Translations under genes and position numbers: made by a program
In this document: one piece after another, positions 9,637 through 18,077 of the stretch
Layout: every line of letters starts with the position of its first letter
Position numbering within the stretch: the first letter of the stretch is position 1
DNA from: a bacterium
GTDB taxonomy: Bacteria > Patescibacteriota > Patescibacteriia > JAHIZJ01
Length of the DNA stretch: 64,000 bases
Assembly: GCA_030699685.1 (NCBI GenBank)
Contig: JAUYLJ010000068.1
Location: 8,947-72,946, forward strand
Reading direction: 5' to 3'
The notes under the pieces: generated by a model
Told to the model about the DNA's origin: nothing
Databases searched by the model: none
Seen by the model: the letters and a program-made list of their open reading frames with translations, nothing else

Positions 9637-9722
9637 GGGTCGGTACCCAAGCGGTCAACGGGGGCAGACTGTAAATCTGCTGGCCTCGGCCTTCGTAGGT
9701 TCGAATCCTACCCGGCCCACCA
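9637..9722 (+). tRNA. tRNA-Tyr (anticodon GTA) with long variable arm
   Basis: Acceptor GGGTCGG/CCGGCCC, anticodon stem-loop GCAGA-CTGTAAA-TCTGC, long variable arm TGGCCTCGGCCTTC, T-arm GTAGGTTCGAATCCTAC, discriminator A plus CCA. Confidence 0.8.
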
Positions 9723-9990
9723 GAGGGGTGTCTCAGGCAGACTGCCACCGCCACATCATTTTCTTTAATAATAATGGAGGCGGGGTGCCGCTAGAAAGCG
9801 GCATAAATCTGTTGGCTTCGGCCTTCGCGGCTTCTTCCGTATCGATGGCGAAATCCCGCTAGCATTTCAAAAATAAATTGTATAGCGCAGGGGGATCATA
9901 CCAGGTTCACCAGTTAGAAAATGTATTTGTTGGCTCGCCAGCCGATTTTAAGTGCGAAATGAAACGATTGGGAATAAATATAGAAACGTG
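9719..9990 (+). repeat. direct repeat copy 1 (tRNA-Tyr 3' end/downstream motif plus ~200 bp), repeated at 14424..14640
   Basis: The CCAGAGGGGTGT segment is followed by GCGGCATAAATCTG(T/C)TGGC(T/C)TCGGCCTTCGCGG..CGTATCGATGGCGAAATC...CCAGG(T/C)TCACCAGTTAGAAAA...TTGGCTCGCCAGCCGATTTTAAG...AATAAATATAGAAACGTGGAC. Both copies share this, and copy 1 has a ~55 bp extra insert. Confidence 0.8.
9770..9870 (+). pseudogene. degenerate partial tRNA-Tyr-like segment (anticodon arm and variable arm remnant) inside the direct repeat
   Basis: GCGGCATAAATCTGTTGGCTTCGGCCTTCGCGG parallels GGCAGACTGTAAATCTGCTGGCCTCGGCCTTCGTAGG of the intact tRNA-Tyr. The spacer motif TAATAATAATG(A/G)AGGC(A/G)(A/G)GGTGCCGCTAG is also duplicated, at ~9555 and ~9765. 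Confidence 0.5.
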
Positions 9991-10094
9991 GACACATAAA
10001 TTCTTGGTAATTAGTTTGAAACGTAACCAAAATAGATTGTGATAAAGAGTTTGAATAAATTGTCGTTTCGATGGTTAAATCGGTATTCTACTTC

Positions 10095-10355
10095 TTTACC
10101 TTAAAAAATCCGCGCGCGCAAAAAGAGAATAGGCAATTTTTCTGCTTGGCTTCGTGCTGACGCACGGGCGGTGGAGCTTCAATAAGGACGAGGCAAAACA
10201 AAAACTATTTTTGCGGGAGAAGGTGATTTTGCTTTGCCTCAACTCTTTTTTGTTGGCAGGATTTTTTTATCCGCCGCGCAGGAGGGTGCGGGAGGAATGC
10301 GCGGCAGATTATTTGCCGTTTGCTTTACGAAAACGGCCATTTATGTCAGGGTAAT
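10095..10355 (+). promoter_or_regulatory. left arm of a ~200-250 bp inverted repeat, immediately upstream of the TruD-like gene; contains a near-palindromic core
   Basis: Reverse complement of 14140..14345 with one ~95 bp indel. The shared core is GGAGGGTGCGGGAGGAATGCGCGGCAGATTATTTGCCGTTTGCTTTACGAAAACGGC(C/T)ATTTATGTCAGGGTA, which includes CGGCAGATTATTTGCCG. Confidence 0.75.
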
Positions 10356-10358
10356 ACC

Positions 10359-11408
10359 ATGACACGCTCAAAACAGTGCAACTATAAACTTAAATGCATC
10401 AATGATGATTTTCAAGTGACGGAAGTACCCTTGATGCCTACTTTAACTTTAAAGCGACCGCGTCGCTTTACTTATATTTGGATTCAAAAAACTGGATTCA
10501 CTACTTTTGATATTATCGAGCAGATAAAAGATTTTTTTAAGTTATCGTTCAGCGATGTATCCAGTCAGGGATTAAAAGACGAGGATGCTATCACAGAGCA
10601 ACTCATCTCAATAAAGAAAATTATAAAAAATGACGACATCATAGCTTTTAATAAGAAAAGCAAGTCCAAAAAGAATTTTTGCCATATTAAGCATATCGTT
10701 GGTTATGGAAATGAGGCTGTAAAGAAAAGAATGCTCCACGGAAATTCGTTTAGAATTGTCATTAGAAATCTGGATAAAACAATCTCCAATACTTTTTTAA
10801 GTTATATCTCTAGCCAAAGACATTATTATTTTATCAACTACTATGATAATCAACGATTTGGAATGCCTAGCGGTCCATACAATACGCATTTGATTGGTAG
10901 GGCTATCGTAGAAAATAAATGGAAGGACGCCTATAAACATCTCAAAAATTCAAATAACTCTCTTCCTAAAATTACAACGAAACTTGAAAGTACCTCCGAC
11001 TTCAAGGAGATATTTCGATTGCTGAACCCAAGGAAGGTTTCTTTTTTTGTTTCTGCTTACAATAGTTTTCTTTGGAATAGTCATGCATCTTCTGTCGTCA
11101 GAAAATATACTAAAAGCAAAAAACATATTTTCGAAAATGTCGGATATCTGTACATACCAACAGCATCTTCATTTCTGTGTCCAAATATCTGCGAGGTGGA
11201 TGGCTATGAATTTCTTGCAAAGAACTTCACAATCGCACTAAAGAAAAATAGTAGAAACCTTGTTGTTGCAACTACGATATATGCTGATGATTTAGAAAAA
11301 GACGGGCTACATAAGGGAAGGTGGAAATTAACTCTTTCTTTTTTCTTGCCAACTGGTAGTTATGCCACCATGATAGTTAAGCAAATCTTCTTGAGATTAA
11401 GTAAATAG
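10359..11408 (+). CDS. truD: TruD-family tRNA pseudouridine synthase
   Basis: N-terminal KCINDDFQVTEV matches KANPEDFVVVE of TruD. Catalytic-Asp motif QGLKDEDAITEQ (compare GxKDxHAVTxQ). INYYDNQRFG (compare NYFGxQRFG). C-terminal LPTGSYATMIVKQIF (compare LPAGSFATSVVRELI). Start moved to ATG 10359 because the track start lies inside the inverted repeat. The gene is markedly AT-rich relative to its flanks. Confidence 0.8.
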   Translation: MTRSKQCNYKLKCINDDFQVTEVPLMPTLTLKRPRRFTYIWIQKTGFTTFDIIEQIKDFFKLSFSDVSSQGLKDEDAITEQLISIKKIIKNDDIIAFNKKSKSKKNFCHIKHIVGYGNEAVKKRMLHGNSFRIVIRNLDKTISNTFLSYISSQRHYYFINYYDNQRFGMPSGPYNTHLIGRAIVENKWKDAYKHLKNSNNSLPKITTKLESTSDFKEIFRLLNPRKVSFFVSAYNSFLWNSHASSVVRKYTKSKKHIFENVGYLYIPTASSFLCPNICEVDGYEFLAKNFTIALKKNSRNLVVATTIYADDLEKDGLHKGRWKLTLSFFLPTGSYATMIVKQIFLRLSK

Positions 11409-11419
11409 ATTCTTATCTT

Positions 11420-12037
11420 ATGAATAAAAATATTGAAATAGAAATACGAGGACCATTGTCGAAAGAAAAATTCAATAAACTAGAGAGTTTTCTTAACGAA
11501 AAAGGTAGGAAGTTAATTGAAAAAAACAGAGTTTTAATTGACTACTCAACTTTTTTAGATGGGGGTATTGAAGATAGAAAAAAAGATATACGCCTGCGCG
11601 TCACTAACGGTGTCCCTGAAATAATAGTGAAAATCGGACAATGGGGCGGGACAGATCAACGAAAAGAGCTTTCGGTTTTAACTAATCCAAGCAGTTTTGA
11701 CACACTCGTCGAAATTTTTGGCGAACTTGGGCTGAAAAAAGGGATGCTATGCGTACGCAGGAGTAAAATCTATGAATATCAAGGAATAGAATTTGCGCTG
11801 GTTGAGGTTCCCAATCATAGCTATTATTACGAGGCAGAAAAAATGGCACATGAAGGCGAAAATCCTGAACAAATAACAAAGGACATAACAAAGGTATGTC
11901 GAGCTTTGCAACTTGAGATATTCGACAAAAAAACATTTTTTGAATATATCCAACGACTGAACAAAGAAGCAAATGAGGTATTTGACTACACTACTTCATT
12001 TAGGCCGAATTACTTCAAAAATAGATTTGGGCTATAA
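11420..12037 (+). CDS. CYTH-domain (triphosphate tunnel metalloenzyme / class IV adenylyl cyclase-like) protein
   Basis: N-terminal EIEIRG..., alternating charged beta-strand pattern (DIRLRV, EIIVKIGQWGG, FALVEVPN), about 200 aa. AT-rich and co-directional with truD (12 bp gap). Confidence 0.5.
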   Translation: MNKNIEIEIRGPLSKEKFNKLESFLNEKGRKLIEKNRVLIDYSTFLDGGIEDRKKDIRLRVTNGVPEIIVKIGQWGGTDQRKELSVLTNPSSFDTLVEIFGELGLKKGMLCVRRSKIYEYQGIEFALVEVPNHSYYYEAEKMAHEGENPEQITKDITKVCRALQLEIFDKKTFFEYIQRLNKEANEVFDYTTSFRPNYFKNRFGL

Positions 12038-12095
12038 CTCAAAAGAAAAAACGGGTGGAGAGTTTTCTGAACTCGCCACCCGTGTGTGTTTGCCG

Positions 12096-12341
12096 TTATC
12101 CATGATGACCCCTCACAAAGACTTTCCCTCGGATTATCTTATGGGCAGGCCTGTTATGAATAATGGCGTGTCGGGCGAACTTTTGACCGCAACTGGGGCA
12201 CTTGAGAGCACCATTTGTGCAATCCGACATGATCATATCGGCGTAACACTTTATGAGCGTCCCCCCGCCCTCTTTTTTGTAGCGGTAAAGCAGACCTGTG
12301 CATTTAGCGCAATGCACGGCAATCGTGTATGTTTTTCCCAC
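12096..12341 (-). CDS. small zinc-ribbon protein, likely last gene of the minus-strand operon
   Basis: CAKCTG...CPSCGQ (CxxC-x-CxxC). GTG start preceded by AAGGAG 7 nt upstream, and 12 bp after the PreA-like stop. Confidence 0.45.
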   Translation of the reverse strand: MGKTYTIAVHCAKCTGLLYRYKKEGGGTLIKCYADMIMSDCTNGALKCPSCGQKFARHAIIHNRPAHKIIRGKVFVRGHHG

Positions 12342-12353
12342 GTTCTTCTCCTT

Positions 12354-13499
12354 TCAGAAAGATGCCTTTATGGCATCAAATTTGGGAGGACATACTCCGA
12401 CACACGCGTTGCAAGAAATGCAGTTGTCGGCGATTACAGCGAGCGGCTTCCTGTTAGCACGACGAAGCATCGTCAGGGCATCAAAAGCGCAGGATTGAAC
12501 GCAGATTCCGCAACCAGTGCACTTCTCTTCGATTACGACCGGACATGGTGACGAAAAACGATGTTCGCGTGTCTTTTCAAGTGTGAGTCCGATCAGATCC
12601 TCAATCGAGTCGTACTGAGGATTCTCCGCGAGAAACCTCCCCAGTCCTGCCGTTATGCGCTTGAAGACAACCGGACCCTTCAGTGCTGGCGCGGTGTAAA
12701 GTTGCACTGCTCTTGCGCCTGCCATCAACATCTGGACAACGTCGTCAGCCGTGAAGATTCCACCACATCCGACGATCGGAATGGTAAGATTCTGCGAAAG
12801 TTGATGTACACACCACAGAGCAATCGGGAAAATCGCTTTTCCAGACACTCCGCCGCCGCCACCCTTAATACCGAGCTTGGGTTTGGCGGTTTTGGTGTCG
12901 ATCAACATTCCGGGACCGATACTATTCGTGCAGACGATGGCGTCAGCGCCTAACTCTTGGGCGCGCTGAGCCATAGAGAGTAGCAGGTTCGAGTATGACA
13001 ACTTGATCCAGATGGGCGTCTTTGTAACGCCCCGCACCTTCTTCATTAGTTGTTCCAGATGAAGCTCGTCAACATTCAAGTTGCCGTGCAGTGCGCCTGA
13101 GTGCGAGCAGGAAATGTTGATCTCGTAGGCATCAACATCAAGCTCGTCAAAGGTCTGGATCAAATAGCAACAACTCTCGAGGTCGCGACCAGAAAGAGAA
13201 ACGATGATCGGACAGCCAGCGTCTTGCACATGGCGCACTCCACTGTCTCGCCACTCTGTCCACGGTTTCTCGTTTCCCCATTCGCAGTTAAGCATGTTGT
13301 CTTGTCCGAAAACCGCGTAACGCGGGACGGTAATTCTCGAACGCTCCGGCGGAACGCGTTGCTTGAGCGAACGGGTGACTATCCCCGAACAGCCGTATGG
13401 TTGAGCTCTCATGAAGAACTCTGGCGTTTCGGTAATGTATCCTGATGCCAACAAGAGCGGTGTCTGGAGACTTACACTTCCTACTTGCGTCCTGAGCAT
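12354..13499 (-). CDS. dihydropyrimidine dehydrogenase subunit PreA-like / DHODH-family flavoprotein with C-terminal 2x[4Fe-4S] ferredoxin domain
   Basis: TIM-barrel DHOD/DPD motifs: active-site EINISCSHSG (compare ELNLSCPHG of DPD/PreA), GIKGGGGGVSGKAIFPIAL, VGCGGIFTADDVVQMLMAGARAVQLYTA. C-terminal CTGCGICVQSC...CISCNACVGVCP. No PreT partner is visible. Confidence 0.7.
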   Translation of the reverse strand: MLRTQVGSVSLQTPLLLASGYITETPEFFMRAQPYGCSGIVTRSLKQRVPPERSRITVPRYAVFGQDNMLNCEWGNEKPWTEWRDSGVRHVQDAGCPIIVSLSGRDLESCCYLIQTFDELDVDAYEINISCSHSGALHGNLNVDELHLEQLMKKVRGVTKTPIWIKLSYSNLLLSMAQRAQELGADAIVCTNSIGPGMLIDTKTAKPKLGIKGGGGGVSGKAIFPIALWCVHQLSQNLTIPIVGCGGIFTADDVVQMLMAGARAVQLYTAPALKGPVVFKRITAGLGRFLAENPQYDSIEDLIGLTLEKTREHRFSSPCPVVIEEKCTGCGICVQSCAFDALTMLRRANRKPLAVIADNCISCNACVGVCPPKFDAIKASF

Positions 13500-13501
13500 G
13501 G

Positions 13502-14071
13502 CTATCCTCCTTTCTGTAGATGTGGCGCTAAAATCGCGAGCACTTCCTTAAACACCATGCGTTCTGTCGCTTCGGAGATTTCAACCACCGAGGTAAACAG
13601 TGATCTTTGCCGCAGGATTGTCCTGATCTCGTCATCGGCTGCCGCAACTCTTTTTTCTATCTCTGCAGAGCTTTCTGTCTTTCGTATGATAGCAAGCCTT
13701 TTGTGAAGCAGAGGTAGTTCAGAGGTAACGAAACCGATAGTGATGACTGCAGGATTGATTCTGAGCGCTTCCGAAACATTGTTCGGGTGCAACTCAGTCA
13801 ATCTGATATCTGTGGTTGGAAACAAATCCTTCCCCCTAAGGCCATAGCGATGGCCAAAGAGGTCTTGAACCAACACCAATTCACCAATATCAGCCCTCCG
13901 ATTGAACTCAGAAACTGAAACAGGGATTCTGTTTCCTCTACCCTGTTCGTCTGGTCGCAGGGGGCGGGTAGTAAACCATGTCAGTTCCTGAATGTATGGG
14001 TGAAGCTGCAATAGCCGTTCCTTGACGTATCCCTTACCGATTCCGGAAGGGCCGCTGAAAGCGATTATCAT
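13502..14071 (-). CDS. divergent guanylate-kinase-like P-loop nucleoside monophosphate kinase
   Basis: P-loop IAFSGPSGIGKGY and FTTRPLRPDEQGRGNRIPVSVSEF resemble Gmk (GPSGVGKGT; TTRxPRxGExxGxDYxF). The conserved GMP-contacting Tyr context is altered. Stop abuts the PreA-like start (operon). Confidence 0.6.
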   Translation of the reverse strand: MIIAFSGPSGIGKGYVKERLLQLHPYIQELTWFTTRPLRPDEQGRGNRIPVSVSEFNRRADIGELVLVQDLFGHRYGLRGKDLFPTTDIRLTELHPNNVSEALRINPAVITIGFVTSELPLLHKRLAIIRKTESSAEIEKRVAAADDEIRTILRQRSLFTSVVEISEATERMVFKEVLAILAPHLQKGG

Positions 14072-14139
14072 CGTACCCCTCCTTTCGTTCGTTTGTGAAA
14101 GAACTTTTCCTAATTCTTAGGAGCATCCTAAGAATTATA

Positions 14140-14345
14140 TTACCCTGACATAAATAGCCGTTTTCGTAAAGCAAACGGCAAATAATCTGCCGCGCATTCC
14201 TCCCGCACCCTCCTGATTGAAGCTCCGCCGCCAGCGTGAAGCCGAGCAGAAAAATTGCCTATTCTTTTTTTGTTTTTGCGCGCGCCGATTTTATCCTTAA
14301 AGGAAAGACAATTTTTCTGCGAGGCAGTGTCATTTGGCAGCACGG
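14140..14345 (-). promoter_or_regulatory. right arm of the inverted repeat, immediately upstream of the Gmk-like/PreA-like operon
   Basis: Reverse complement of the 10095..10355 core, including the CGGCAGATTATTTGCCG near-palindrome. The 66-67 aa ORFs the track places in both arms share an identical 23-aa C-terminus simply because of the repeat. Confidence 0.75.
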
Positions 14346-14423: not shown

Positions 14424-14640
14424 AGGGGTGTTCACTCACTCTAACGCGGCATAAATCTGCTGGCCTCGGCCTTCGCGGGTTCTTCCGTATCGATGGCGAA
14501 ATCTCGTTAACATTTCGAACATAAGTTGTATAGTGCAGGGGAATCCTACCAGGCTCACCAGTTAGAAAAAATGTCTTTGTTGGCTCGCCAGCCGATTTTA
14601 AGCGCACAACGAAACCATTGGCAATAAATATAGAAACGTG
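14424..14640 (+). repeat. direct repeat copy 2 (att-like; begins with CACACCAGAGGGGTGT resembling the tRNA-Tyr 3' end plus downstream)
   Basis: See copy 1. About 85-90% identity by eye over ~200 bp. Confidence 0.8.
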
Positions 14641-14685
14641 GACGCACCATTCTTAAATAATTAATTAAACACTTAATAAAACATC

Positions 14686-16983: not shown

Positions 16984-17409
16984 TTATTGTTTCGTCAATA
17001 TCGAAAAGAATGTTTCGAGATGGGCAAACGCTTCGTCAAGAGTCTGGTAGGATCGGGACTGAATGTTTGAATTTCCAAGCACCATCGGACTGGCGTGAGC
17101 GGATGTTCCTTCTCTATAGAGCGCCATGATTGGGATGTTTCGGCTTTCCGCCAAGCCGATCTCGTAACCGACTCCGATTGAAGGCGTGGAAATATCGGCT
17201 ACCAGCGCGTCGGCCTGCCGGACTAAACCAGAATCGTAATCGTAAATCTCTTGGTGTGTAAACTCGACTCTTCCTTTGTCCGTGATGGCCGGATCGCCCA
17301 CGAAATCGCTGAGAACCTGTCCGTAACTTCGCAAGTGCGTAATCAAGGCGCTGTAGATAGTGACATCCTGGCGGCCGCTTCGAATTGATCCGGCGAAATA
17401 TATTTTCAC
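16984..17409 (-). CDS. DNPH1/Rcl-like 2'-deoxynucleoside 5'-phosphate N-hydrolase (nucleoside 2-deoxyribosyltransferase family)
   Basis: VKIYFAGSIRSGRQDVTIYSALITHLRSYGQVLSDFV matches LYFCGSIRGGREDRTLYERIVSRLRRFGTVLTEHV of DNPH1. ADALVADISTPSIGVGYEIGLA matches ADVVVAEVTQPSLGVGYELGRA. Start set at GTG ~17409 because the track's upstream ATG overlaps the preceding gene by 120 bp. Confidence 0.8.
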   Translation of the reverse strand: MKIYFAGSIRSGRQDVTIYSALITHLRSYGQVLSDFVGDPAITDKGRVEFTHQEIYDYDSGLVRQADALVADISTPSIGVGYEIGLAESRNIPIMALYREGTSAHASPMVLGNSNIQSRSYQTLDEAFAHLETFFSILTKQ

Positions 17410-18077
17410 TATATCCGTATGCCAAAACTTTGGAATATCCCCAGCACTCCGTGGAGAATGCCAAAAACAATGCTCAGCCAGGCCATATAGCGGTGGTAGT
17501 AGCTCATCTTGACGATGGAGTTGTCCCATTTATCCGGTCCGGGTATCTTTCCTTTCCAGGGAACGGAACGGACGCACCAGGGCATGACGTAACAAGACAT
17601 GAAGTTCAAAATGAAGACCAGCGCGAACACATAGCCGGTCCAGGCCGTGAGGTTTTTGTCAAAAAGCAGGATGTTGGAGCGACCCGCGGATCCCGTCTTT
17701 TCTGTCCCAGGTTCACCCAGCCGTCCGACTACCTCGAAGCCGGCAAAGACTTCCGTGCCGTGCGGTGCTTCGGAAAGCGCCTGGGTCAGGTCTACCCCGG
17801 CCGCGTGGCCGAAGTGACTGCCTTCCTCAAACATTGCACTGTCGCTCACATCGTAAATCAATCCTTGGTAGGCGTAGTAGGCCGGCCGGCCATCCTGTCC
17901 GTCAAAGGCGCTCAGTTCTTCGTTGCTGAATGCTCGCAGGCTCTCTGTATCGATGGCTGATTCTTCATCAACCGCCGCGGCAATCACCGCGCTTGAGAGA
18001 AATACCGTGGCCATGAAAAGGTAGCCTACAAGAATCGCTTTTTTTGATGGTGGTAATTCCTTCCAGTATATTTTCAT
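17409..18077 (-). CDS. membrane protein with cytochrome b5-like haem/steroid-binding domain and C-terminal TM helices
   Basis: N-terminal signal-anchor, then FDGQDGRPAYYAYQGLIYDVSDSAMFEEGSHFGHAAGVDLTQAL (cyt-b5-like fold pattern), then three hydrophobic helices. Confidence 0.5.
   Translation of the reverse strand: MKIYWKELPPSKKAILVGYLFMATVFLSSAVIAAAVDEESAIDTESLRAFSNEELSAFDGQDGRPAYYAYQGLIYDVSDSAMFEEGSHFGHAAGVDLTQALSEAPHGTEVFAGFEVVGRLGEPGTEKTGSAGRSNILLFDKNLTAWTGYVFALVFILNFMSCYVMPWCVRSVPWKGKIPGPDKWDNSIVKMSYYHRYMAWLSIVFGILHGVLGIFQSFGIRI

Follow-up and report, generated by a model that had tools for sequence, protein, structure and literature searches.

This work suggests that the gene at positions 13502 to 14071 on the minus strand of the 64,000-nucleotide stretch of contig JAUYLJ010000068.1 analysed here (hereafter the window) encodes a kinase that has the fold of guanylate kinase without being a GMP kinase. 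This protein, which we refer to as GmkL, would instead phosphorylate a uracil-type nucleoside monophosphate (NMP), namely UMP, pseudo-UMP or 5,6-dihydro-UMP, in an ATP-dependent manner and within a pathway of free nucleotides, a reading to which we give about an even chance. The fold, the residue replacements, the linkage to a conserved set of genes, the gene fusions and the mobility of the set are established, and it is the substrate, the direction of the pathway and the biological role that we infer.

The gene, whose strand had not been given in the original prediction, begins with an ATG at position 14071 and is preceded by a strong Shine-Dalgarno (SD) sequence, AAAGGAGGGG, at 14076-14085.

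13502..14071, minus strand: GmkL, P-loop kinase of the guanylate-kinase fold, 189 amino acids, with the non-guanine NMP-site residues W32, N47-R48, L67, Q69, L78, E93 and H95

In the protein, GPSGIGKGY occupies residues 7-15, TTRPLRPDEQGRGNRIPVSVSEF residues 34-56 and LFGHRYGL residues 71-78. The original prediction, made by reading the sequence, had described the P-loop and the TTR..R segment as similar to those of guanylate kinase (Gmk), and all the strings that it quoted are present; the similarity was confirmed by a score of 53.8 bits (E 1.7e-14) with TIGR03263, the Gmk equivalog model, and by structural matches with a TM score of 0.82-0.85. The cutoff of TIGR03263 is 160.45, and canonical Gmks score 212-255 bits on it. 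With the Pfam model PF00625 (Guanylate_kin) GmkL reached 18.4 bits (cutoff 25.2), and with the models of PhnN it reached 23.9 bits (TIGR02322, cutoff 156) and 14.8 bits (NF007485, cutoff 153), while its top sequence match in the PDB was human GUK1 (E 6e-6). The AlphaFold2 model, built on 41 homologues, had a mean predicted local distance difference test score (pLDDT) of 91.4, and the structures that it matched in Foldseek were closed, GMP-bound guanylate kinases (E 1e-13, 19-25% identity). The resemblance of GmkL to Gmk at the sequence level thus appears weak, yet far beyond chance, and on the strength of the model the assignment to the guanylate-kinase fold can be considered secure and the open reading frame (ORF) real.

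The active site was examined in an alignment of 116 GmkL family members with the human, E. coli and yeast Gmk, and the alignment was repeated with a 41-sequence set and 150 profile hits; the E. coli Gmk and PhnN sequences were verified, at 255 and 358 bits, respectively. The guanine contacts of Gmk, according to the yeast and mouse structures, are S37, Y53, E72, T/S83 and D103 in the human enzyme, which correspond to S34, Y50, E69, S80 and D100 in the yeast enzyme. The residues of Gmk, in human numbering, and of GmkL correspond as follows:

S37 of Gmk: W32 of GmkL
D52-Y53 of Gmk: N47-R48 of GmkL
E72 of Gmk: L67 of GmkL
T83 of Gmk: L78 of GmkL
D101 of Gmk: E93 of GmkL
D103 of Gmk: H95 of GmkL

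The replacements W32, R48, L67, L78 and H95 are invariant or nearly so across the family, Q69 is newly conserved, position 74 is mostly His, and Arg75 is frequent. The phosphoryl-transfer set is retained, comprising K13, the TTR36..R39 clamp, E42, Y76-G77, E93 and the LID residues R125, R130 and R141, and K13 and the counterparts of R41, R44, Y81 and LID R137 and R148 of human Gmk (R36, R39, Y76, R130 and R141 in GmkL) are likewise invariant or nearly so. The P-loop of GmkL is GKG[Y/F], in which the Lys is followed by Gly and not by Ser or Thr, a detail that the original prediction had passed over; a GKG-type P-loop (GKGT) is of the adenylate-kinase style, the Gmk style being GKS[T]. Judged from the alignment, purifying selection maintains the rebuilt pocket as a coherent alternative binding site, and it is not a product of decay. 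Because all of the base-reading residues of the Gmk fold are exchanged in GmkL, an altered acceptor specificity would be the natural reading. The proposal of an altered NMP-binding region in the original prediction was therefore well founded, in that the guanine-reading residues are exchanged throughout the family in the alignment with human, E. coli and yeast Gmk. The signature of the clade, which is found in full in the window kinase, can be written as GKG[YF] ... E29, W32-x-TTR-x2-R, N47-R48, L67-x-Q69, Y76-G-L78, T-E93-x-H95, with a gene resembling that of dihydropyrimidine dehydrogenase (DPD) immediately downstream.

GmkL is sparsely distributed, in place of the universal, single-copy housekeeping pattern of Gmk: its homologues form 144 clusters (43-100% identity) among 5.8 billion proteins, and 30 loci were found among 185,579 species genomes scanned with a single peptide pattern. 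The hosts of these 30 loci are Paceibacteria, Uhrbacteria, Kerfeldbacteria, Saccharibacteria/Nanosyncoccus and three metagenome-assembled genomes (MAGs) labelled archaeal, and the named homologues come from Kerfeldbacteria, Paceibacterota, Colwellbacteria and the 'Patescibacteria group'. The window kinase itself is 100% identical to Q8Q20_05495, a hypothetical protein from a bacterial MAG without classification. When 1.84 billion representatives were searched with a profile, 59 clusters came first, at E<1e-30, then graded non-canonical Gmk-like clades, and canonical Gmks last.

It might be argued that GmkL is the highly divergent housekeeping GMP kinase of a reduced genome, since guanylate kinases make up all of its top matches in sequence and in fold, since proteins of the candidate phyla radiation (CPR) are often divergent, and since no other gmk is present in the 64-kb window or in approximately 400 kb of related loci. 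However, the guanine contacts are all exchanged, three of them by Trp, Leu and Leu, and invariantly so within the family, GMP kinase is universal and this family very sparse, every occurrence of the gene is within a mobile cassette, and its score of 53.8 bits compares with 212-255 bits for real Gmks. Furthermore, guanylate kinase was encoded in the classes other than Microgenomatia in a survey of freshwater CPR bacteria (PMC9166423), and because of this survey those classes can be said to have another gmk already. We thus regard a housekeeping role as highly improbable. When the window and all of the related loci (~400 kb) were searched by tblastn with the E. coli and human Gmk, no canonical gmk was detected, and the sole additional match was a non-canonical ORF in the cassette-bearing Paceibacterota genome of locus L013.

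This second Gmk-like ORF (L013 15937..16476, 179 amino acids, 5 kb from the cassette) has the P-loop GDGGSGKST and scores 62.5 bits with TIGR03263; it keeps the counterparts of Y53 and T83 and has lost those of E72 and D101, which hints at further unexplored kinases of the Gmk fold in CPR bacteria. The non-canonical Gmk-like clades (profile hits P0166-P0255) form a large radiation that far exceeds the GmkL clade in number; examples of their signatures are E29/V32/R48/F67/F78/E93/H95 and 'TTRR-D.FH.WYFEHNRR'. For four of these relatives that were looked up on contigs long enough to include the downstream gene (P0169, P0174, P0207 and P0209), the next gene in each case resembled dihydroorotate dehydrogenase (DHOD).

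Evidence on the acceptor comes from the genes that accompany GmkL. The kinase gene is the first in an operon of kinase, reductase and Zn ribbon, and the genes for a TruD-like and a CYTH protein are convergent with it, so that the cassette has five genes, of which the other four are placed in the window as follows:

12354..13499, minus strand: DPD/PreA-like flavoenzyme, 381 amino acids, DHO_dh TIM barrel and C-terminal 2x[4Fe-4S] domain
12096..12341, minus strand: Zn-ribbon protein, 81 amino acids, two CxxC pairs, restricted to the cassette
11420..12037, plus strand: CYTH (triphosphate tunnel metalloenzyme) protein, 205 amino acids, convergent with the kinase operon
10359..11408, plus strand: TruD-like pseudouridine synthase, 349 amino acids, GLKD and NYY..QRFG motifs conserved

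The kinase is translationally coupled to the DPD-like reductase: the gap between the kinase stop codon and the reductase ATG is 2 nt, and the reductase SD (GGAGGA) lies within the last kinase codons. In counts over 29 species-genome loci, the reductase gene directly followed the kinase gene in 28 of the 28 informative loci and was absent from none, the Zn ribbon was present in 24 and absent from 2, the CYTH protein was present in 22 and absent from 5, and the TruD-like protein was present in 18 and absent from 6. Identities to the window proteins were 75-90% for the reductase, 80-89% for the Zn ribbon, 67-83% for the CYTH protein, 62-69% for the TruD-like protein and 53-74% for the kinase. The Zn ribbon is thus the best-conserved member, and it is 53% identical even in the distant variant L040. 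The cassette is found, in unrelated contexts, in approximately 30 genomes of CPR bacteria and of archaea of the DPANN type; among the carriers are GCA_001818735.1, JACPHT01 and CAUUYE01. The five genes have an unchanged order in Kerfeldbacteria, several Paceibacterota and other metagenome contigs with unrelated flanking genes, and a comparison of flanks across the loci yielded no further conserved gene beyond the five. No description of this gene set was found in full-text searches of the literature, and the five-gene cassette appears to be undescribed.

More distant variants (L040, L042/43, L044 and L045) retain the parts list in a changed order, and in some of them the CYTH protein is swapped for a NUDIX protein. 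A natural fusion of the kinase and the reductase is found in P0133. In P0207, which belongs to a sister clade with the signature V32/F78, the kinase is fused to a domain of the uridine-kinase/PRK family (NF004018, 99.7 bits), and the operon of this protein (L040) runs from a TruD-like gene through the kinase-Udk fusion, a DHOD-like gene and a Zn ribbon, the one that is 53% identical to that of the window, to a NUDIX gene. The order in L042/43 is TruD, kinase, DHOD-like, CYTH and Zn ribbon, with all of the genes overlapping, whereas L044 has kinase, DHOD-Fer4 and NUDIX, near genes for a phosphoribosyltransferase, GuaA-like, Tmk-like and PfkB proteins and a methyltransferase. In L045 the cassette set adjoins the gene of a YfbR-like nucleotidase (an HD protein), and genes for Ham1, Maf and ASCH proteins are neighbours at some loci; Ham1, Maf, YfbR-like and ASCH proteins are house-cleaning enzymes for modified nucleotides. 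The kinase and the reductase therefore form the invariant core, and with them come a protein that hydrolyses di- or triphosphates, an enzyme of the TruD type and the Zn ribbon.

Several of these variants, together with the pocket, bear on the other known enzyme of the fold, PhnN. GmkL could be a PhnN-like sugar-phosphate kinase that makes phosphoribosyl pyrophosphate or an analogue, for use in ribosyl transfer, from ribose 1,5-bisphosphate or from a similar ribosyl phosphate. It matches TIGR02322 weakly (23.9 bits), and E. coli PhnN has Leu at the position of Gmk E72, Val at that of T83 and Asn at position 47; in addition, a second phosphate could be bound by Arg48, which is invariant, and by Arg75, which is frequent, the fusion partner in P0207 is a domain of the PRK/Udk family, to which a sugar-phosphate kinase belongs, and a phosphoribosyltransferase gene is near the L044 variant. 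Ribose-1,5-bisphosphate metabolism is also prominent in CPR bacteria and DPANN archaea. Nevertheless, we consider a PhnN-like activity unlikely, as the PhnN score is under the Gmk score and far under the cutoff of 156, Arg39 is invariant in GmkL and lacking at that position in PhnN, the core cassette is without a phosphoribosyltransferase, and the DPD-like and TruD-like partners are directed at bases and not at sugars.

A ring substrate of the uracil or thymine type is argued for by the reductase, because in its motifs it agrees with pig DPD and not with DHOD. Its LNCE, EINISCSH and CTNS motifs align to N609/E611, N668/S670/C671/H673 and N736/T737 of pig DPD and are conserved throughout the family, whereas DHOD has SCPN in place of the N-I-S-C-S-H residues; the predicted substrate would thus be without the carboxylate of orotate. 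Thymine and pseudouridine are both C5-substituted uracils. The reductase is below every equivalog cutoff (PyrD-1B, 185 versus 269 bits; PreA, 147 versus 335 bits). A role as pyrD in de novo synthesis is unlikely, because in the survey of freshwater CPR bacteria UMP de novo synthesis was encoded in Microgenomatia only (PMC9166423). The other partners also keep their characteristic residues, as the TruD-like protein has the complete TruD core with GLKD and NYY..QRFG, and the CYTH protein has the acidic and basic residues of the tunnel. The Zn ribbon forms 45 clusters, all restricted to the cassette, and its model (pLDDT 89) gave no significant structural match; the top matches (E 0.45-2) were beta-tent Zn domains, namely MsrB1, the C-terminal domains of RIG-I-like receptors and the CULT domain of cereblon, and we treat this likeness as a lead only. 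Because of the linkage to the DPD-like reductase, the Zn ribbon, the CYTH protein and the TruD-like synthase, the cassette points to an acceptor among uracil or pseudouridine nucleotides rather than to a purine nucleotide or a deoxynucleoside monophosphate (dNMP). This linkage is the decisive observation, and the original prediction had not taken it up.

The same partners could be assembled into a module of RNA modification and RNA-end processing, in which pseudouridine would be formed in RNA by the TruD-like enzyme, the DPD-like protein would behave like a dihydrouridine synthase and the CYTH protein would be an RNA 5'-triphosphatase, RNA ends would be bound by the Zn ribbon, and RNA with a 5'-monophosphate would be phosphorylated by the kinase. 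The full catalytic core of TruD, the faint matches of the reductase to Dus, and the annotation of a Zn-ribbon homologue as Nop10 in one source are consistent with this possibility; so are the CYTH superfamily, which includes RNA triphosphatases, and the non-significant fold matches of the Zn ribbon to the C-terminal domains of RIG-I, MDA5 and LGP2, which bind 5'-triphosphate RNA. On the other hand, the fusion to a domain of a nucleoside-kinase family, the swap of CYTH for NUDIX and the Ham1, Maf and YfbR-like neighbours direct attention to free nucleotides, the reductase motifs are of the DPD type, and the Zn-ribbon fold matches had E >= 0.45. An RNA-level module is therefore quite unlikely in our view.

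According to the favoured reading, that of a uracil-type NMP kinase, GmkL would transfer a phosphate from ATP onto the NMP to give the diphosphate, and it would thereby either provide the reductase with a nucleotide substrate or draw off what the reductase has made. The TruD-like enzyme would act on a free nucleotide, so that the pathway might interconvert uridine, pseudouridine and their dihydro forms, and the CYTH or NUDIX protein may trim phosphates and reset the phosphorylation state. The pathway might serve to salvage or detoxify modified nucleotides that come from the host, or it might run towards the synthesis of a modified nucleotide. A more specific version, which we put forward tentatively and consider possible though doubtful, is that episymbiotic members of the CPR and DPANN groups would have a free-nucleotide pathway not described so far, in which uridine, pseudouridine and their 5,6-dihydro forms are interconverted, for example to recover host pseudouridine as uridine nucleotides: reduction of the C5=C6 bond by the flavoenzyme would be followed by a shift of the glycosidic bond, catalysed by the TruD-like enzyme, and then by re-oxidation of the ring, again by the flavoenzyme, with GmkL as the first pyrimidine (modified-UMP) kinase of its fold and the beta-tent-like Zn ribbon as a nucleotide-binding subunit.

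Several points weigh against a uracil-type NMP kinase. Base specificity is not readable from sequence; the P-loop of GmkL (GKG[Y/F]) is without the Walker-A Ser/Thr, as is likewise the case in adenylate kinases; and the kinase is the least conserved member of the cassette (53-74% versus 75-90% for the reductase). TruD is canonically an RNA enzyme, and the TruD-like protein keeps the complete TruD core, so that an RNA-level role would also be conceivable. In addition, the uridine-kinase-like domain of P0207 is below the equivalog cutoff (99.7 versus 180 bits) and could be another kinase of the PRK family, and a canonical gmk was not seen within the 64 kb of the genome that could be read.

If a uracil-type NMP kinase is indeed what GmkL is, the guanylate-kinase fold would acquire a new specificity, a TruD-family enzyme would act on free nucleotides in a second context besides the antibiotic clusters of actinobacteria, and a DPD-type reductase would be coupled to a kinase. 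Bacteria of the CPR and archaea of the DPANN group have no de novo nucleotide synthesis, and the cassette offers a compact, strongly conserved and testable unit for the handling of scavenged or modified nucleotides. For annotation, it would follow that the cassette genes should not be named gmk or pyrD in metabolic reconstructions of reduced genomes.

The unit is a horizontally mobile accessory metabolic cassette of CPR bacteria and DPANN-type archaea, as is apparent because of its terminal inverted repeats (TIRs), its inversion, its unrelated contexts and a GC asymmetry that is independent of the host. In the window, genes for tRNA-Thr and tRNA-Tyr stand immediately upstream of the cassette, and the repeats around it are placed as follows:

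9637..9722, plus strand: tRNA-Tyr(GTA), probable integration landmark
9795..10031, plus strand: left direct repeat, ~237 bp, with the 3' part of tRNA-Tyr as a split copy
10103..10356, no strand assigned: left TIR, the upstream region of the TruD operon, pairing with 14138-14292; its core 10279-10356 is 99% complementary to 14138-14215
14138..14292, no strand assigned: right TIR, the upstream region of the kinase operon
14443..14681, plus strand: right direct repeat, 80-89% identical to the left one, with a tRNA-Tyr fragment 90-94% identical to the gene

The direct repeats, in each of which the 3' piece of tRNA-Tyr is split, resemble a duplication of the att site through integration at a tRNA gene. 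In the Kerfeldbacteria locus L001, too, the cassette is flanked by a tRNA-Tyr gene, and in the Uhrbacteria locus L011 the distance between the two is ~1.3 kb. Adjacency to tRNA genes as a general rule was rejected, as a tRNA was within ~1 kb in only ~8 of the 30 loci, which is not clearly above expectation, and no integrase or transposase was found in the cassette unit of the window. The arms of the inverted repeat include a GC-rich hairpin, CCGCCGCGCAGGAGGGTGCGGGAGGAATGCGCGGCGG. The paired upstream regions are 89-100% alike over 140-270 nt in L001, L013, L017 and L011 (for instance, 271 nt at 90% in L001 and 141 nt at 100% in L017, with 78 nt at 99% in the window), and the two arms are more alike within one genome than between genomes, which suggests gene conversion or recent mobilisation of the cassette. 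Positions 10181-14215 of the window match 7858-11885 of L001 in reverse orientation at 73% identity, while the flank with tRNA-Thr/tRNA-Tyr and the rpsB, tsf and TPR genes is collinear; the cassette thus looks as if it had been inverted by recombination between the TIRs. In the closest (Paceibacteria-type) cassettes, GC content is 0.29-0.54 in the half with the kinase, reductase and Zn ribbon and 0.26-0.36 in the half with the CYTH and TruD-like genes (12096-14071 and 10359-12037, respectively, in the window). This asymmetry is independent of host GC (0.30-0.49) and is much weaker in more distant cassettes. The view of the original prediction that the gene lies in an island is thus strengthened by the direct repeats with tRNA-Tyr fragments, the TIRs, the inversion relative to Kerfeldbacteria and the unrelated contexts elsewhere, and its view that the genome is a reduced one is plausible, the host being a CPR-type MAG.

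The analogy with phage or auxiliary dNMP kinases, which had also been drawn in the original prediction, was not supported. In PHROGs, GmkL matched phrog_1815 only, a generic guanylate-kinase family, at 42 bits, and a tblastn search of 50,697 phage records gave 3 weak matches at 26-28% identity; a phage origin was rejected, as both searches yielded generic weak Gmk matches alone, and the cassette is thus not a phage remnant. Mobility would also fit a conflict system directed at phages or at the host, in which the kinase would activate the precursor of a pyrimidine nucleotide analogue that is toxic or terminates chains, a possibility with which the sparse, horizontally mobile distribution and the TIRs, the occurrence of a TruD-like enzyme and a kinase in nucleoside-antibiotic clusters, and the position of the L044 variant amid nucleotide-tailoring genes are consistent. 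Nucleotide kinases also accompany prokaryotic viperins. However, none of the five cassette proteins had a match among the PADLOC models, and the flanks contain no conserved gene for a sensor, an effector or immunity. A conflict system is therefore very unlikely in our estimation; it concerns the biological role, and it is compatible with the biochemistry of a uracil-type NMP kinase.

The leader of the kinase operon, between a promoter-like region and the kinase SD, contains a hairpin with a perfect stem:

14072..14137, minus strand: leader of the kinase operon, with the SD at 14076-14085, the conserved motif AAGTTCTTTCACAAAC at 14091-14106 and a hairpin at 14111-14137
14111..14137, minus strand: leader hairpin, perfect 12 bp with a 3-nt loop, TAATTCTTAGGA-tgc-TCCTAAGAATTA

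Hairpins were found in this position in the window (14091-14137) and in L001, L009, L010, L011, L016 and L023, and a conserved AGTTCTTTCACAA motif lies downstream of the hairpin. The position is common and the sequence differs in each genome; single-sequence folds gave z-scores of -1.8 to -4.0 in 7 of 8 leaders, and RNAalifold gave no consensus structure for the leader hairpins, because MAFFT was unable to align them. Stabilisation of the 5' end or a part in regulation could be the role of the hairpin. Apart from two tRNAs, no Rfam match was found in the shared leader/TIR, and the idea of a riboswitch is unsupported. In the window, an ORF of the nucleoside 2-deoxyribosyltransferase family (PF05014, E 9e-12) is located at 16984-17529 on the minus strand, 3 kb from the cassette, and a faint member of this family adjoins the L044 variant too, perhaps without any link between the two. 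A HATPase_c protein of ~549 amino acids is found near the cassette in 6 loci (for example, L005 11645-13294), at a variable distance and on either side, and its presence there may reflect no more than a shared location in variable regions.

Among known systems, Gmk/GUK1 (EC 2.7.4.8; TIGR03263, PF00625) shares with GmkL the core, NMP-binding and LID parts, with a TM score of 0.82-0.85 to closed GMP complexes, as well as the Lys of the P-loop, the phosphate clamp TTR..R, the YG-motif Tyr and the Arg residues of the LID. It differs in sequence, with 19-25% identity and a GmkL score that is a third of the TIGR03263 cutoff, in S37, Y53, E72, T83 and D103, which are W, R, L, L and H in GmkL, and in a P-loop of GKS[T] as against GKG[Y/F]; it is universal and single-copy, whereas GmkL is sparse, mobile and bound to the cassette. 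PhnN (ribose 1,5-bisphosphate phosphokinase, TIGR02322) has in common with GmkL the fold, hydrophobic residues at the positions of E72 and T83 and a phosphate-monoester acceptor. In contrast to GmkL, it is without the second Arg of the clamp; GmkL is far from its model (23.9 bits, cutoff 156), and no phn genes are present in the window neighbourhood of GmkL. The UMP/CMP kinases are a functional analogue only, since they carry out the proposed reaction (pyrimidine NMP + ATP to NDP + ADP) and belong to a different family, that of adenylate kinase, in which the P-loop is of the GKG type. To our knowledge, no pyrimidine NMP kinase of the Gmk fold has been described.

The cassette reductase resembles the catalytic module of PreA and DPD in its DHO_dh barrel with C-terminal 2x[4Fe-4S] and in its N-x-E, N-x-S-C-x-H and T-N-S/T motifs, and differs in that it has no PreT partner, is coupled or fused to a kinase, and is without the Fe-S domain in some variants. 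A TruD-like enzyme that acts on free uridine is PumJ, which stands beside the kinase PumH in the biosynthesis of pseudouridimycin (PMC8724604). The actinobacterial pseudouridimycin clusters are, unlike the cassette, without a DPD-like reductase, a CYTH protein and a Zn ribbon, and PumJ is likened here to the TruD-like protein by its description; PumH, unlike GmkL, is described as a PolQ2-like kinase that is thought to act on the 2' position (PMC8724604). Like the cassette, however, the cluster of PumJ and PumH joins to its TruD-family enzyme both a kinase of the P-loop type and a phosphohydrolase, in a pathway that handles uridine and pseudouridine as small molecules (PMC8724604).

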